From an uncultured Gemmatimonadales bacterium (GTDB lineage Bacteria; Gemmatimonadota; Gemmatimonadetes; Gemmatimonadales; GWC2-71-9), in the NCBI GenBank assembly GCA_963840165.1, contig CAWIXT010000001.1, positions 10,653-74,652 of the forward strand: DNA of 64,000 bases. The letters run 5' to 3'. The translations under genes and the position numbers were made by a program. Below the pieces are notes generated by a model, which made no database searches, was not told the origin of the DNA, and was given only the letters and a program-made list of their open reading frames with translations. Of this stretch, positions 20,649-34,084 are shown one piece after another. Numbering within the stretch: the stretch's first letter is position 1; every line of letters starts with the position of its first letter.

Positions 20649-21116
20649 ATGGTCGACACATTCGGCTCAATTCTGATTGGTGGGGTGGCCGGCCTGGTCT
20701 CGGCGCTGCTGACCCAGTTCTCGACCCGAGCCAAGATCCGGCTGGACCTTGCGGCCGAGTACGACAAGCAACTCCAGGAAAGCCGTCTGGCGGCGTACAA
20801 AGAGCTTTGGGCCATGCTCGAGCCGCTCGCTCGCTTCGGACGTAAGGGCCCGGTCACTCCGGCCGTGCTGCAGGAAATTTCAGACAAGACCCGGGCCTGG
20901 TACTTCCACACCGGCGGGATCTATCTGACTCAGCGCAGCCGGGAGCCGTATTTCGCCTGGAAGAAGTTGATGCAGCCACTCCTGGAAAGTGGAGCAGTCA
21001 AGCAACCCAATACCCCCGTCCCGGACCCGAAGCTGGACTCGATCATCGAAGCCGCCAGCACGCTCCGAACGGCACTCTCGGATGACATCGGAACCAAGCG
21101 CCTCGCTCGAGTCTAA
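20649..21116 (+). CDS. Hypothetical protein with N-terminal TM helix
   Basis: GGAGG RBS; ILIGGVAGLVSALL hydrophobic segment followed by a helical domain. Confidence 0.7.
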   Translation: MVDTFGSILIGGVAGLVSALLTQFSTRAKIRLDLAAEYDKQLQESRLAAYKELWAMLEPLARFGRKGPVTPAVLQEISDKTRAWYFHTGGIYLTQRSREPYFAWKKLMQPLLESGAVKQPNTPVPDPKLDSIIEAASTLRTALSDDIGTKRLARV

Positions 21117-22128
21117 AAGCGACAGCAGGATAGAGCGCCTCCGCCGAACCCAGGCACTCGGCAAGCTGATTGGAGAAGCACCCGCTTTCGTGCAGGCGAT
21201 CGCGCCGCTTCCAATGGTAGCCCGCTGCTCGGCGCCGGCGCTGCTAACGGGCGAAACCGGAACCGGCAAGGAGCTGGTGGCCCGGGCCATTCACTACCTG
21301 AGCAGCCGCGCGGCCAAGCCGTTCGTCCCGGTGAACTGCGGCTCACTCCCTGATACGCTGCTCGAAGGCGAGCTCTTTGGACACGAGCGCGGCGCCTATA
21401 CCGATGCCCGGAGCCGCAGGGTCGGCCTCATCGCCCAGGCGGAAGGCGGCACCCTCTTTCTGGACGAGATCGACAGCCTCACCCCCCGCGCGCAGGTCGC
21501 CGTTCTCCGGGTGATCCAGGACAACATCGTTCGTCCTCTCGGCTCGAGCGTGGAGCAGCGGGTTGATGTCCGGTTCATCGCGGCAACCAACCTCGAGTTG
21601 ACTGACTTGGTGCACCGCGGGGCCTTCCGGGAGGATCTGTACTACCGGCTCTGCGTACTGCTCGTGTGCCTGCCGCCGCTCCGGCAGCGCACCGCCGATA
21701 TCCTGCTCCTGGCACGTCACTTCCTCCAGAAGCACGCGCTGCGCGACCGGGTGACGCCTCGGCTGGCGCCGGAAACCGAGGTGGCCCTCCTGCATCATGA
21801 CTGGCCCGGCAACGTGCGCGAGCTCGAGAACGCCATCATCCGGGGGATCAATCTCGCGGAAGACGATTGCATCGCCCCGCTCGATGTCGGGCTCCCGGGA
21901 ACCCGGCAGGATGAATCCATCGCGGCCTCGGCTCCCCGCCGATCCTTCCAGGCAGAAAAGAAGCACGTGGTGGCTTCGTTCGAGCGCCAGTATCTGAGGA
22001 CACTCTTGTCCGACCACCGCGGGAACGTGAGCCACGCCGCACGCACCGCCGGTAAGGAGCGTCGAGAGCTTGGGCGCCTGCTCAAGAAGCATCAGATCGA
22101 TCCCCGGGACTTCCTGACTCCAGTGTGA
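21082..22128 (+). CDS. Sigma54-dependent activator (AAA+ plus Fis-type HTH), no sensory domain
   Basis: GETGTGKE, VNCG, ELFGHERGAYTDA, LFLDEI, FREDLYYRL, WPGNVRELEN, GNVSHAARTAG; start uncertain. Confidence 0.92.
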   Translation: MTSEPSASLESKSDSRIERLRRTQALGKLIGEAPAFVQAIAPLPMVARCSAPALLTGETGTGKELVARAIHYLSSRAAKPFVPVNCGSLPDTLLEGELFGHERGAYTDARSRRVGLIAQAEGGTLFLDEIDSLTPRAQVAVLRVIQDNIVRPLGSSVEQRVDVRFIAATNLELTDLVHRGAFREDLYYRLCVLLVCLPPLRQRTADILLLARHFLQKHALRDRVTPRLAPETEVALLHHDWPGNVRELENAIIRGINLAEDDCIAPLDVGLPGTRQDESIAASAPRRSFQAEKKHVVASFERQYLRTLLSDHRGNVSHAARTAGKERRELGRLLKKHQIDPRDFLTPV

Positions 22129-22149
22129 ACTTCACGGGCCCGCGGCGGA

Positions 22150-31508: not shown

Positions 31509-31537
31509 ACACCCGGCTGGGTTGAACGGAGGAAGTC

Positions 31538-34084
31538 ATGTCCAACAGGTTGGCGGAGCTGCATCGGCGGCTGGAGATCAGGAGCCCGGCCGGGAACATC
31601 ACTCCGGGTCCGGTCAAGGTGGTGGCCCGCCCCCGTCGCGTATGGGAAGCGAGCCGCGGCCTCGGGCGGGCGCTCGACTACGTCGTGCCGGGCGAATTGC
31701 CCGCGCTGCGGCAAACCAAGCCCAACGGCTGCTGGGCTACCGTGACCACGATGATGCTGTCGTGGCGGCGCCAGGAATCGCTTACCGTAGAGGATGCGAT
31801 CGGCTCGCTCGGTGAGCAATATCTGAACCGGTACAACGCCGATACCGGTCTGCTGGCGGCGGACAAGCCGGTCTTCCTGGCGGCGGCTGGGCTCATAGCC
31901 GAGTGGCCTCAGAGCCAGTCCATGGAGAGTTGGGAGGAGCTGCTTCGCCGGTACGGACCGCTGTGGGTAACGACCGACGAGCGGCCGGGGCCCCGGTTTG
32001 CCATCCATGCGCGAGTCATGACCGGGATCCACGGAGACGGGACCCCCGAGGGGACCACGATCGATCTCATCGATCCGGCAGGCGGCCGGAGCTACAGCGA
32101 GCCGTTTACCGACTTCGTGCGGAAGTTCGAGGAGGAGACCCGCCAGACCGGCAATCTGCGGATTCAGATCGTCCATTGGCCGGCGGACGCCGGAGTGACC
32201 ATAGCCAAGGCCCTCGCCGAAGCACGATCAGTGGCCATTCAGTTGAGCCGGGGGCTGGTAGACGAGATCGAGCTGGCCGAGGCCGAGCCGGATGTCGCCG
32301 AGCTGGACCCGGAGCCATGGCGGCCCCGCTCGAGCGCCCTGGCCGTGGTCGCGTTCTCCAAGCCTCGAATGAAGGCGAAGGATGTGCGCTGGGCCGCGGA
32401 TAACGTCTCGCCCGACTATCGCCATCTGGGGCAGCCCGGAGTGAGCACCCAGTTCTCGCTGAACGCCGGCACCTTGAAGGAGCTGGCGGAGTTCAATCAC
32501 TTCGACCTCGATGGCGGCCAGGATCAAGTGGTTTTTGGTCTGCGCGGCTGCAGCGTGGAGCGGGACCAGCCTCAGTTCGCCAAGGCGATACGGTTGAGCG
32601 AGACCGTCCCGAACCATTTTGACAATCTTTGTGTGATCGGGGTATGGAAGCGCTCTACCGGTGAGCTGGCGTGTTTCCAGGCGTCTACCGTCCCCAACTA
32701 TCGTGCGATGGAGAACTTCCGGCAGGGAGGCCGAAGGGCCAACATGCTTCCCACCGGCCGTTACAGCTTCAGGGTGGGAACCCACCGGCCAACCAAGAAG
32801 GGGGAGGACGGCAAGCCGGTTCCCAATCCGACCCGGGTACAGGGCGCCCTGTTGGAGGCCGAGGAGCGGGTGGTCCTCCGCACCACGGACGACCTCACCT
32901 ACACGGTCAGTGACCACTGGGATCGGGGCCGGGTGGGCGATAACATCCACTCGGGGTATCACCCCATCAATCCTCCACCGAGCACGAGCCCGGATTTCGC
33001 CTCGGCTGGTTGTCAGACCGTACCCGGGAAATCTGCCAGTGACCGGCCGAGCGGTGCCTGGGCTGATTTTCGGGCTGCGCTCGGCCTCAACAACACCCGG
33101 CCGACCGGGGATGACAAGAAGCGATTCTTGTATATGCTGCTGACGGGTCGGGAAGCCCGCCTGGCCTCGGGCTGGGGTGATGACGAGGCCGGACTGACCC
33201 GACTCCGCTTCGGCTCCCGCGGTCCCGCGGTGTCGGCTCTGCAGCGCGCGCTCAAGACGGCCGGATTCGACCCGGGTCCGATCGACGGGGCCATGGGGGC
33301 GGGAACGGTGTTCGCCTACATCCAGTGGCAGCGCAGCCGGGATAATGGTGCTGCCGATGGGATCGTGACCCCGGCGGCCGCGCGGCTCCTCGGATTCCAG
33401 CTCACTGCCTCGCAGCCGGGCGCGAAATCGCTGAGTCGCGCAGGAGCCCTGGCTCGGGCCTTCGACACCGAAGTTCCGCTGAGTCCGGCCACGGGAGGGC
33501 GCTCGATCGGAGCTGACGCGCTCGAGGTGGGAGACATCATTCTGTCCACCACCCGGCACCCGGTCTCTCGTGGCATACGGGTGGCGACTGGCGCCCCGGT
33601 GAGTCACGCGATGCTGTACATAGGAGATGGGCAGATAGTCGAGTCGGTCGGCTCGGGCGTCGTCCTACGCCAGCTCGACGATGCACTGGCCGACGCGACC
33701 CTGGCGGTGGCGGTGCGGAAGCCGGGGCTGACATCCGAACAGGGACAACGCATTCGAGACTTTGCCGGCCGTCAGCTCGATCGCAAGTACGATTACTGGG
33801 GTATCGTGCGCCAGGCGCGGTTCCGGATCGACAATCTGCGCTACTGCACGCTGCTGCCGGAGCCGTTGCGGTCCAAGTGCCGGTCCTTCATGGGGCGGAT
33901 ACATCTCGGCACAGACACAAACGACAGCTTCTTCTGTTCCGAGCTGATCCTTGCGGCCTACGCCGATGCCGGAGTGCCGCTCACGACCACGCCGCCGCAC
34001 TGGACCAGCCCGGGCGAAGTCGCCGACCTGCGGCTCACCGGTACGCTGGACTACGTCGGGCATCTGAAGACCGGCGGTAGATGA
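31538..34084 (+). CDS. Multidomain protein: papain-like cysteine protease, L,D-transpeptidase-like domain, peptidoglycan-binding domain, permuted NlpC/P60 (YiiX/YebB-like)
   Basis: QTKPNGCWA...GPLWV...HARVMTG...DP; NIHSG...SAGCQ; LRFGSRGPAVSALQRAL...IDGAMG; GDIILST...SHAMLY...YDYWG...FCSEL. Confidence 0.8.
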   Translation: MSNRLAELHRRLEIRSPAGNITPGPVKVVARPRRVWEASRGLGRALDYVVPGELPALRQTKPNGCWATVTTMMLSWRRQESLTVEDAIGSLGEQYLNRYNADTGLLAADKPVFLAAAGLIAEWPQSQSMESWEELLRRYGPLWVTTDERPGPRFAIHARVMTGIHGDGTPEGTTIDLIDPAGGRSYSEPFTDFVRKFEEETRQTGNLRIQIVHWPADAGVTIAKALAEARSVAIQLSRGLVDEIELAEAEPDVAELDPEPWRPRSSALAVVAFSKPRMKAKDVRWAADNVSPDYRHLGQPGVSTQFSLNAGTLKELAEFNHFDLDGGQDQVVFGLRGCSVERDQPQFAKAIRLSETVPNHFDNLCVIGVWKRSTGELACFQASTVPNYRAMENFRQGGRRANMLPTGRYSFRVGTHRPTKKGEDGKPVPNPTRVQGALLEAEERVVLRTTDDLTYTVSDHWDRGRVGDNIHSGYHPINPPPSTSPDFASAGCQTVPGKSASDRPSGAWADFRAALGLNNTRPTGDDKKRFLYMLLTGREARLASGWGDDEAGLTRLRFGSRGPAVSALQRALKTAGFDPGPIDGAMGAGTVFAYIQWQRSRDNGAADGIVTPAAARLLGFQLTASQPGAKSLSRAGALARAFDTEVPLSPATGGRSIGADALEVGDIILSTTRHPVSRGIRVATGAPVSHAMLYIGDGQIVESVGSGVVLRQLDDALADATLAVAVRKPGLTSEQGQRIRDFAGRQLDRKYDYWGIVRQARFRIDNLRYCTLLPEPLRSKCRSFMGRIHLGTDTNDSFFCSELILAAYADAGVPLTTTPPHWTSPGEVADLRLTGTLDYVGHLKTGGR

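Follow-up and report, generated by a model that had tools for sequence, protein, structure and literature searches.

Ten tightly packed + strand genes lie at positions 22365-34084 of a 64,000-nucleotide stretch of DNA (the window) from an uncultured Gemmatimonadales bacterium, downstream of a sigma-54 activator and a -24/-12 promoter element, and the question they raise is what kind of system is encoded by an operon in which so few products can be named. The spacing of neighboring genes ranges from -32 nt (overlap) to +29 nt (gap), and a search of the + strand found no convincing terminator in the interior of the operon. Activator, promoter element at 22337 and ten + strand genes were all confirmed as described in the first-pass annotation. 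Seven of the proteins had no significant match in Pfam, NCBIfam, PHROGs or PADLOC, and only an S8 protease and an 848-aa multi-domain enzyme could be named from these collections. Sequence comparison across loci indicates that the operon is one copy, with the architecture that we call type A, of a multi-protein system that is conserved and horizontally scattered and has so far escaped annotation.

Conservation and distribution

The order S8 - p627 - p359 - p656 - p113 - p250 was colinear in 75 of 75 loci, which were distributed over at least ten phyla and include members of the Gemmatimonadota, Cyanobacteriota, Planctomycetota, Gamma- and Alphaproteobacteria, Acidobacteriota, Bacteroidota, Deinococcota, Desulfobacterota and Myxococcota. 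Where a locus could be evaluated, the S8 protease was present in 67/67, p359 in 69/69, p656 in 60/61, p113 in 56/57 and p250 in 55/57. A conserved core with variable downstream enzymes in many phyla, the pattern that the first-pass annotation had named as support for a distinct system, therefore emerged strongly from the gene-neighborhood comparison. The spread of the system is nonetheless patchy, with copies in 2 of 401 genomes of the phylum and in none of 24 congeners, and some copies are carried on mobilizable plasmids.

Control region

The activator (21082..22128, + strand; reading frame open from 20989) is a sigma-54 enhancer-binding protein with Sigma54_activat (Pfam, E 1.5e-60), AAA_lid_14 and HTH_8 domains, and has GAYTDA at the usual position of GAFTGA. 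Domain searches found neither a sensor nor a receiver domain, as had been claimed at first for the receiver. Homologues of the activator lie upstream in 17 of the 75 loci, and one is also found at a type B locus of Burkholderia. The promoter element, TGGCCTGGAGCATGCT (22337..22352, + strand), was identified by pattern match and sits within the 236-nt gap that precedes the first gene. By itself the -24/-12 pattern is not rare, the window containing 10 matches against 5.2 expected, and 8 of 100 shuffled sequences reaching 10. TGG-N9-TGC occurs upstream of the wHTH or S8 gene in about 15 of 18 related activator-bearing loci, and the strict pattern was found in none of 10 loci lacking the activator. 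In some loci the regulator is of the SARP/BTAD type.

The first gene of the operon (22365..22676, +; GTG start) encodes a small helix-rich protein of 103 aa, labeled wHTH, with no family hit. Homologues were found in 11 of 75 loci, and it is a lineage-specific protein outside the conserved core; an association of this type of protein with contractile-injection loci, suggested when the sequence was first annotated, gained no support.

Core proteins

The S8 subtilisin-like serine protease (22673..23977, +; Pfam Peptidase_S8, E 1.6e-48) is 434 aa long from a GTG start, the 490-aa ORF that begins at an ATG being an upstream extension, and has a conserved N-terminal domain of about 175 aa. With full-length identity of 48-67% in the 67 evaluable loci it is the most conserved core component. 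The motifs of its catalytic residues Asp (LDTG), His (VGHGTHV) and Ser (GTS.A.PFV) show at least 95% conservation among 61 sequences, and it is predicted to be an active cytoplasmic protease.

Two proteins of the core were modeled with AF2. p627 (23991..25874, +) has 222 homologues, all 'hypothetical' and with no Pfam assignment, and consists of a disordered N-terminus, a helical N-domain (~80-225), an all-helical C-domain (~230-600) that is highly conserved in the alignment, and a tail of acidic character, DDFDSDWDA; many lineages have p627 divided between two genes. p359 (25896..26975, +) has homologues in 1443 clusters at 50% identity (E<=1e-3). Confidence in both models was middling (pLDDT 71-75, pTM 0.42-0.44); that of p627 is all-alpha (pLDDT 74.8), while that of p359 (pLDDT 71) comprises N-terminal helices, a helical hairpin and a long amphipathic beta-hairpin (232-250 / 303-321), which encloses a Ser/Gly-rich disordered loop (20% Ser, 15% Gly) with an unmodeled tip. 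The modeled strands are 19 residues long with one hydrophobic face, although the alternation is just moderate (|corr| 0.3-0.4). p359 is the candidate for an oligomeric, membrane-active element. Neither model had a fold match in the PDB or BFVD. Sequence and fold searches together placed the core in no described system; such a placement would, by the first-pass annotation, have counted against its proposal.

p656 (26979..28949, +), delimited by alignment, is specific to type A. It has an invariant N-terminal MALA, an N-domain of about 110 aa, a hydrophobic Gly/Pro-rich linker of variable length and a C-terminal domain of about 320 aa, and had no sequence match in the PDB. The small ORF p68 (28946..29152, +) overlaps both of its neighbors and gave tblastn matches in 11 of 75 loci, its conservation being limited to close relatives. 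Alignment also defined p113 (29121..29462, +; 108 aa if counted from the second Met), a small acidic protein in which the motif PTQxTETTxxPVFHR is conserved. p250 (29449..30201, +) has 342 homologues, again all 'hypothetical' and without Pfam assignment. Its N-terminal domain (1-95) is highly conserved and is followed by a helical middle part and a C-terminal domain rich in beta structure.

A scan of the core proteins for hydrophobic 19-mers found none with KD >=1.5 except a borderline segment of p656 (148-167), and neither an ATPase nor a membrane-spanning segment was found in the core. The N-termini of wHTH and S8, inspected by eye, contain no signal-like segment. Export signals had first been said to be missing from the protease and the peptidoglycan-active protein, and none was seen in any protein.

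Adaptor, N-terminal tag and cargo

In type A loci the cargo genes always lie downstream of p250, and a locus has one to three of these variable proteins. The protein just after p250, p431 (30213..31508, +), had been left unassigned in the first-pass annotation; an iterated HMM search instead identified it as an adaptor-type protein, with a variant N-terminal tag, MGNRVMSLFDLDE, an acidic disordered region, and a motif of about 74 aa at residues 200-272 (nt 30810-31028). This motif, the eighth conserved element, is present at the same place in 45 of 47 loci, and in relatives is fused to C70, Ntox11 or Amidase_2 domains.

The tag itself is an N-terminal amphipathic sequence, M-x0-9-NRL[LFA]xLE (short form NRLxxLE), followed by a basic disordered stretch. 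Counted as NR[LIV][LFAM].[LM][DEH] in the first 40 aa of an ORF, it was found in 31 of 1138 ORFs, all of them on the + strand and 8-1721 nt downstream of p250, and these 31 proteins fall into six unrelated sequence clusters. The background in the bacterium's own genome was 2 of 6476 ORFs, one of them p848 (31538..34084, +), the 848-aa enzyme. Tag and domain searches mark p848 as putative tagged cargo, with MSNRLAELH (nt 31544-31564) followed by four domains: Peptidase_C70 (55-197), a phrog_3000-like region (322-536), PG_binding_1 (561-614) and an amidase-like YaeF/C92 domain (650-846).

The domains of tagged proteins vary and include C70 peptidases, peptidoglycan-binding domains, amidases and Ntox11. 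Among 82 downstream proteins we counted Peptidase_C70 19 times, PG_binding_1 five times, OmpA four times, Ntox11 and Amidase_2 three times each, and CAP, Extensin-like_C and C92 once each. C70, which occurs in 26 of 47 loci, may act in processing or may itself hydrolyze the cell wall. In cyanobacteria the loci contain inserted genes for further signal-less proteins, which are lectin-like (Laminin_G_3), beta-propellers (SBBP) or coiled coils with PG_binding_1. Delivery of antibacterial cargo had been proposed for the operon from the outset; the cargo part of that reading is supported by a specific tag shared among unrelated, polymorphic enzyme and toxin proteins, while the antibacterial part is drawn only from the peptidoglycan-active domains. 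Within the window no immunity-like gene follows the effectors, the next genes being a Phd/PIN pair, and this arrangement fits self-lysis or virion-type lysins equally well as antibacterial effectors.

In a second architecture, type B, p656 is missing and p359 is represented by four paralogues. Type B retains S8, p627, a weak p113 homologue and p250, together with a C70 protein that carries a Trypsin_2 or C92 domain; in Burkholderia pyrrocinia the locus is preceded by genes for a sigma-54 activator and an amidase of 1254 aa. Along with p656, type B lacks the adaptor motif and, over the extent of its loci, the NRL tag, and the proposed tag-docking step is therefore not universal.

Relationship to known systems

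Among the closest known systems are polymorphic toxin systems, in particular the S8-PTS of Gram-positive bacteria, outlined as three components: an S8 protease, an immunity protein, and a toxin with signal peptide and BetaH domain (Li, Tan and Zhang 2022, PMC9424270). Both there and here a subtilase gene is linked to genes for proteins that differ between loci in their enzymatic or toxin domains, with a conserved pre-toxin region in front; relative to S8-PTS, our operon lacks a signal peptide, BetaH and, in the window, an adjoining immunity gene, adds five to six conserved proteins of unassigned fold, and belongs to a system with mostly diderm hosts. The extracellular contractile injection systems (eCIS; PVC, Afp) likewise have signal-less cargo with an N-terminal packaging region and make all parts in the cytoplasm, and Ntox11, which is listed among PVC-delivered toxins (PMC3482391), is cargo in both. 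The operon differs from them in having no sheath, tube, baseplate, spike or AAA+ ATPase, and its core shows no relationship to theirs in sequence or, in the case of p627 and p359, in predicted fold.

Anthrax protective antigen with LF/EF exemplifies the protease-activated binary (AB-type) toxins, whose pore-forming subunit is primed by an S8-family protease and whose cargo docks by an N-terminal helix with a charged, unstructured leader behind it. The likeness is one of logic only: the operon has an S8-family protease and tagged cargo, and a barrel could be built from the long p359 beta-hairpin with its flexible tip. The two are not linked by any match in sequence or fold, however, and our system, known here from its genes, has cytoplasmic rather than secreted components and several more core proteins.

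Possible function

An S8 protease, five to six proteins of no recognizable fold and tagged enzymes together point to a machine that delivers or releases enzymes. We tentatively favor a putative apparatus that is primed by a protease, lacks an ATPase, and docks tagged lytic or toxin cargo for delivery or release. Upon induction through sigma-54 and its enhancer-binding protein, the core proteins would self-assemble in the cytoplasm with no ATPase, primed by S8 cleavage of one or more of them, and cargo would dock by way of the tag and the adaptor motif. The peptidoglycan-degrading and toxin domains would then cross a membrane via the assembly, an oligomeric beta-barrel of p359 being the best candidate for the membrane-active part, and arrive at a cell wall, which could belong to a target cell, once the complex is released, or to the producer itself. 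Such logic would resemble that of protease-activated binary toxins and polymorphic toxin systems, with homology to neither detectable.

The main rival, which we consider rather unlikely, is regulated autolysis or programmed cell death, in which S8 activates a membrane-permeabilizing p359 and/or p656, signal-less hydrolases reach the cell's own wall and lysis follows; such lysis could release contents or toxins altruistically, amount to abortive-infection-like death, or form part of development. Gasdermin systems pair a protease with a pore-former in this way. Autolysis would account for export signals being missing everywhere when the commonest cargo domains target peptidoglycan, for cargo with no adjoining immunity gene in the window, for tight control by a sigma-54 activator or SARP/BTAD regulator, and for a patchy, partly plasmid-borne spread like that of conflict systems. 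Known lysis cassettes, though, need far fewer than six to eight strongly conserved structural proteins, Ntox11, CAP, trypsin-like and lectin/propeller proteins are hard to explain by suicide alone, a dedicated cargo tag implies selective handling, and the core proteins have no defense-system relative in PADLOC. The tag would also suit an intracellular shell, filament or coat that sequesters or positions lytic enzymes for remodeling or development of the cell's own wall, resembling as it does the microcompartment encapsulation peptides, in which an amphipathic tag precedes a disordered linker. Every part is cytoplasmic, there is no ATPase, and the core is as strongly conserved as a structural lattice; yet searches of Pfam and NCBIfam detected no shell family (BMC, encapsulin or other), the cytoplasm offers a peptidoglycan hydrolase no substrate, and rarity within the phylum speaks against a housekeeping role in morphogenesis, making such a scaffold improbable.

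We give very little weight to the idea that the operon encodes an already described apparatus in highly divergent form (contractile injection system, T6SS, T7SS or phage-derived particle). Ntox11 is otherwise a PVC/eCIS cargo domain, the T7SS mycosin is the nearest NCBIfam model of S8, and the locus encodes helical hairpin proteins as in ESX systems, but the mycosin score (189.5 bits) falls under the family cut-off (278.75), and VgrG, FtsK, EccC/EssC, EccB/D/E and WXG100 are absent from the operon. Domain searches of the operon found no sheath, tube or baseplate family, in agreement with the first-pass annotation, Phage_sheath_1 was not found in the bacterium's own genome (76.7% complete), and the 75 loci yield no conserved ATPase cluster. 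The core also has no PHROGs matches, p359 occurs in no phage record, and p627 has no fold match in BFVD. A biosynthetic cluster for a ribosomal peptide or processed protein, in which S8 and the C70/C39-like peptidase remove leaders and the unassigned proteins act as modifying enzymes, seems to us equally far-fetched. Two peptidase families of the leader-removing kind, S8 and C70 (with weak C39_2 similarity), and the small ORFs p68 and p113 would fit it, but radical-SAM, YcaO, Lan-type and ABC-transporter families are missing from the operon and from the conserved clusters of the 75 loci, and the p627 and p359 models have no enzyme-like fold. Moreover, p113 is conserved and folded-looking, unlike a hypervariable core peptide, and the tagged proteins are large enzymes.

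Conservation of the core genes across phyla

The operon that follows the sigma-54 activator gene belongs to a real, conserved and unannotated multi-gene system that occurs in two architectures, that of the window (type A) and one with four paralogues of p359 and no p656 (type B); proteins are denoted here by p and their length in amino acids. All 222 homologues detected for p627 are named 'hypothetical protein' and none has a Pfam domain; they come from Gemmatimonadota, Cyanobacteriota, Planctomycetota and Gammaproteobacteria. One genome per species was scanned for related loci, giving 75 loci that additionally span Alphaproteobacteria, Acidobacteriota, Bacteroidota, Deinococcota, Desulfobacterota and Myxococcota. 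Family HMMs placed the genes in the order S8 protease, p627, p359, p656, p113 and p250 in 75 of 75 loci. A conserved core with variable downstream enzymes across phyla, the check named in the first-pass annotation, was thereby borne out. Among the loci reaching far enough, the same HMMs detected S8 in 67 of 67, p359 in 69 of 69, p656 in 60 of 61, p113 in 56 of 57 and p250 in 55 of 57.

The S8 proteins are 48-67% identical over all 434 residues, including an N-terminal domain of about 175 aa, and their catalytic motifs are conserved among the related loci; S8 is a predicted active protease. Identities of 40-60% across phyla were found for p359 and p250, while p627 is represented in many lineages by two genes, an N-part and a C-part of about 400 aa. 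Other genes are lineage-specific, namely those for the wHTH protein (11 of 75 loci), p68 (also 11 of 75) and the activator (17 of 75), the last of which is replaced by a BTAD/SARP regulator in the alphaproteobacterial loci. The wHTH gene was considered as a system-defining gene and rejected, since only 11 of the 75 loci carry it. In the cyanobacterial loci, signal-less Laminin_G_3, SBBP beta-propeller or PG_binding_1 plus coiled-coil proteins are encoded between S8 and p627, and further unknown proteins between p656 and p113.

Cultured carriers include Tolypothrix sp. PCC 7601 (on a plasmid), Hahella sp., Aurantiacibacter sediminis and Calothrix strains. One contig of Adonisia turfae CCMR0081 holds two separate type-A loci (L015 and L020) that differ in their accessory genes. 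IS605 OrfB/TnpB-type genes interrupt a Symploca locus (12023-13138 and 18815-20071 of L053), separating p627 from p359 and recurring after p250, and the plasmid copy of Tolypothrix PCC 7601 has an IS701 transposase directly after p250, the usual position of a cargo gene.

Operon organization and predicted promoter

The open reading frame of the sigma-54 enhancer-binding protein (20989-22128, probable start at 21082) is followed after 236 nt by ten genes, all on the forward strand like the activator. These encode the wHTH protein (22365-22676), S8 (22673-23977), p627 (23991-25874), p359 (25896-26975), p656 (26979-28949), p68 (28946-29152), p113 (29121-29462), p250 (29449-30201), the adaptor-type protein p431 (30213-31508) and p848 (31538-34084), the tagged cargo, with gaps or overlaps between neighbors of -32 to +29 nt. 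The intergenic stretch after the activator contains the element TGGCCTGGAGCATGCT (22337-22352, forward strand), with the -24 GG and -12 GC at canonical spacing. The pattern alone is not rare, with 10 matches in the window against 5.2 expected; the position and strand of TGGCCTGGAGCATGCT suit an operon promoter. Among 18 related loci with the activator, about 15 have TGG-N9-TGC ahead of the operon's first gene, and the strict pattern was found in none of 10 related loci lacking the activator.

The activator has an AAA+ sigma-54 domain (Sigma54_activat, E value 1.5e-60), AAA_lid_14 and a Fis-type HTH (HTH_8), and in the translation of 21082-22128 its sigma-54 contact loop reads GAYTDA versus the usual GAFTGA. 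Pfam found no sensor domain in it, and control may therefore sit elsewhere, possibly with the small wHTH protein. In this lineage the operon is under predicted sigma-54 control, and one activator alone should switch the system on. The gene layout, activator, promoter and unassigned proteins described in the first-pass annotation were all recovered by ORF calls, family searches and the promoter scan.

Family assignments and structure models

A family assignment was obtained for only two of the operon proteins, S8 and p848. S8 matched Peptidase_S8 of Pfam (E value 1.6e-48), and its best NCBIfam model, the T7SS mycosin TIGR03921, scored 189.5 bits against a cut-off of 278.75. In PADLOC, S8 alone matched, to generic subtilase and IetS models, and the nine other operon proteins gave nothing at an E value of 0.01 or below. 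Four regions were recognized in p848: Peptidase_C70, a phrog_3000-like region, PG_binding_1 and YaeF/C92. The remaining operon proteins had zero matches in Pfam, NCBIfam, PHROGs and PADLOC. Profiles built from alignments of p627, p359, p656 and p250 found nothing significant among PDB sequences, the best match, a PCNA chain (E value 2.8e-4), having no passing stretch. An ESM Atlas look-up of p627 and p656 gave no usable match, ten distant p359 relatives produced only a sub-threshold DUF6683 hit in Pfam, and p359 had no match in phage records.

A hydrophobicity scan of the operon proteins, with the N-termini of S8 and the wHTH protein inspected by eye, revealed no signal peptide or membrane-spanning segment, in agreement with the earlier statement that the protease and the peptidoglycan-active protein lack an export signal; residues 148-167 of p656 form the sole borderline hydrophobic stretch. 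The aligned p656 sequences share an invariant MALA start; further along, a hydrophobic linker rich in Gly and Pro, which varies in length, precedes a conserved C-terminal domain.

The AlphaFold2 model of p627, from a 26-row alignment, is all-helical (pLDDT 74.8, pTM 0.44), with a disordered N-terminus, loop (316-348) and acidic tail. That of p359, from 60 rows (pLDDT 71, pTM 0.42), has N-terminal helices, a helical hairpin (103-136 and 196-227) with a small beta-hairpin, and a long beta-hairpin (232-250 and 303-321) around an unmodelled loop that is 20% Ser and 15% Gly. The strands of the long hairpin have one hydrophobic face, and their alternation is only moderate. Foldseek found no PDB match to either model at an E value of 0.001 or below, and a comparison of the p627 model with the viral folds of BFVD gave no match (best E value 0.012, TM about 0.1). 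The hhalign probabilities for p113 with p250, p113 with p656, p250 with p656 and p359 with p627 were at most 1%, so that no internal duplication was seen among these core families.

Variable cargo-like proteins, N-terminal tag and adaptor motif

The proteins encoded downstream of p250 vary by locus. Pfam analysis of 82 such proteins from 45 loci found Peptidase_C70 in 19, PG_binding_1 in five, OmpA in four, Ntox11 and Amidase_2 in three each, and CAP, Extensin-like_C and C92 in one each; the other matches were mostly to methyltransferases and transposases, probably flank genes. Ntox11 is listed among the toxins of the PVC pathway in PMC3482391.

Two sequence features recur in this variable region. 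Using an iterated HMM seeded with residues 191-285 of p431, we found an adaptor motif of about 74 aa, with the consensus H-D-V-F-D-x-M-G-x-x-M-x-Y-A-N-S-F-D-L-G ... R-F-D-E-F-D. Of the 47 loci whose sequence extends 3 kb or more beyond p250, 45 encode one protein with this motif after p250, and 37 of these proteins start no more than about 150 nt from the end of p250. Depending on the locus, the motif is fused to C70, Ntox11 or Amidase_2. The other feature is an N-terminal tag, M-x(0-9)-N-R-L-[LFA]-x-L-[ED], after which the sequence is basic and disordered. Of 1138 ORFs, 31 showed the strict pattern of the tag among their first 40 residues, and all 31 lie on the forward strand, 8-1721 nt after p250, in six unrelated sequence clusters. 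As background, the pattern was found near the start codon of two of 6476 ORFs of at least 150 aa in the organism's own genome, one being p848 and the other probably a chance match. The N-terminus of p848 reads MSNRLAELH and the tag variant of p431 is MGNRVMSLFDLDE; the cargo N-termini have this NRL tag and no hydrophobic signal. The tag on these variable enzymes is specific. Polymorphic toxin systems in general join a constant N-terminal trafficking region to C-terminal toxin or enzyme domains that differ, and the present system has this arrangement, its tag and adaptor motif being conserved and its C70, Ntox11, Amidase_2, PG_binding, OmpA and CAP domains varied. We saw no immunity-like ORF after p848 in the window. 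Complex prediction of p656 and p250 with a cargo N-terminus as partner scored 0.01 (mark 0.32), which is uninformative either way.

Some adaptor-type proteins (in loci L016, L018 and L044, and p431 in the window) share another short motif, RV[RI]SQAFD, roughly 50 residues from their start; in p431 its form is RVISQAFDGGEPISLRYS, within the N-terminal part encoded at 30213-30392.

A second architecture and its distribution

Searching 1.84 billion representatives with the p359 profile yielded 1443 clusters (50% identity) at an E value of 1e-3 or below, 848 at 1e-10 and 184 at 1e-30, and the more distant members retain the same motifs. Type B has a fixed gene order in 33 metagenome loci of at least 9 kb: a C70 protein (with Trypsin_2, with C92 or with no extra domain), p359b-1, a p113-like protein, p250, S8, a p627-like protein, an unknown protein of about 345 aa, p359b-2, p359b-3, a small p627-like protein and p359b-4. 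Type B (loci L079-L158, and L159 below) has four p359 paralogues and two p627-like genes; p656 and the adaptor motif are absent, and the NRL tag was not found in the parts that the loci reach. The type-B copy of Burkholderia pyrrocinia (L159; NZ_CP091309.1, 397828-422568) lies on an 880-kb replicon and is preceded by genes for a sigma-54 activator, a DUF3467 protein and a 1254-aa amidase, and its core genes are all 'hypothetical protein' in RefSeq.

Type-A copies occur on mobilizable plasmids of about 195 kb in Tolypothrix and Microchaete. A sample of 401 genomes from the window's phylum contained the family in two, and no copy was found among 24 genomes of the window's genus. Given this rarity and the copies on plasmids and a replicon, the system is an accessory, laterally moving element.

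Comparison with described systems

Membership of a contractile injection system (eCIS, T6SS) was rejected, as none of the 11 operon proteins matched sheath, inner tube, baseplate or spike families, in line with the first-pass annotation, which had seen no sheath, tube or baseplate; Phage_sheath_1 was also not found in the organism's own genome, which is 76.7% complete. A T7SS was rejected in the same way, the operon having no FtsK/SpoIIIE-type ATPase (EccC/EssC) and no WXG100 Pfam family, and no conserved ATPase cluster was found in the 75 loci. A known anti-phage defence system was rejected because PADLOC was silent on the nine proteins besides S8.

The closest described concept is the S8-PTS of Gram-positive bacteria (PMC9424270), a three-component system whose toxin begins with a signal peptide, continues with a BetaH domain and ends in the toxin proper, with an immunity gene next to it. 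It differs in defining features, since the cargo of the window carries an NRL tag without a hydrophobic signal, and p848 is followed by no immunity-like ORF. A similar logic, without homology, is found in polymorphic toxin systems and in those binary toxins that an S8-type protease primes. No description of this gene set was found in the literature searched, though the neighbourhood tables of PMC3482391 and PMC9424270 may mention these genes. The system is undescribed in four family libraries, the PDB, BFVD, RefSeq names and that literature, and the earlier view that the core belongs to no described system held for the libraries and both structure collections. The fold comparison covered the p627 and p359 models.

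Possible function

The function of the system is inferred. Under the reading that we tentatively favor, the core proteins would assemble without an ATPase once primed by the S8 protease, proteins bearing the tag would dock on this assembly as cargo, and their wall-degrading and toxin domains would be carried across a membrane, with p359 the strongest candidate for the component that acts on the membrane. The main rival, which we regard as somewhat unlikely, is a regulated autolysis module; it suits the absence of export signals in the operon proteins and of immunity genes, but explains less well the large conserved core, the N-terminal tag and the non-lytic cargo. That the operon encodes a cytoplasmic scaffold or compartment appears quite improbable, and we give scarcely any weight to a peptide-product (RiPP) cluster. 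A divergent form of a known apparatus is very improbable, the operon having no hallmark families of eCIS, T6SS or T7SS. The remaining probability falls to something else.

To return to the protease-primed assembly, it is tempting to speculate that it is a new ATP-independent delivery machine that brings tag-recognised, folded-domain cargo into other cells and is unrelated to types I-XI and to contractile and phage-derived devices, a proposal that we consider unlikely. The subtilase would prime a self-assembling complex of p627, p359, p656, p113 and p250, hetero-oligomeric p359 beta-hairpins would form the conduit, and the complex would recognize the dedicated N-terminal NRLxxLE tag, moving cell-wall hydrolases and Ntox11-type toxins across a membrane. 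Such a machine would exist in two architectures and span ten phyla or more.

Although 40-65% identical across phyla, six to eight proteins have no family, solved relative or RefSeq name. The logic of the system is recognizable, in that it combines a protease and a structural core with variable lytic or toxin cargo bearing a tag, all tightly regulated. A delivery or release machine would give bacteria of soil, freshwater and the sea, filamentous cyanobacteria among them, a new route to antagonism or lysis; a suicide module would be an unusually elaborate one. In either case the system lends itself to direct tests. The targeting tag and the set of protein folds that it would supply would both be new.

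Sequences flanking the operon

G+C rises from 0.54-0.59 in the window's first 12 kb (1-12000) to 0.62-0.70 beyond, and in composition the operon matches the sequence immediately flanking it. Upstream, on the same strand, genes for a 930-aa IPT/TIG-domain protein and a 354-aa fasciclin-domain protein occupy 16057-19787. A 15-bp tandem repeat (34072-34260; consensus CGGCGGTAGATGCTG, 12.6 copies, 93% matches) starts within the last codons of p848 and extends beyond its stop. The gene pair directly after the operon, with an overlap of 4 nt, encodes a Phd/YefM antitoxin (34488-34754) and a PIN-domain toxin (34751-35122), and beyond it lie a DUF2779 gene (35155-36624) and a Uma2 endonuclease-like gene (36917-37558), both on the reverse strand. 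From 34488 onward the region looks like accessory gene territory.
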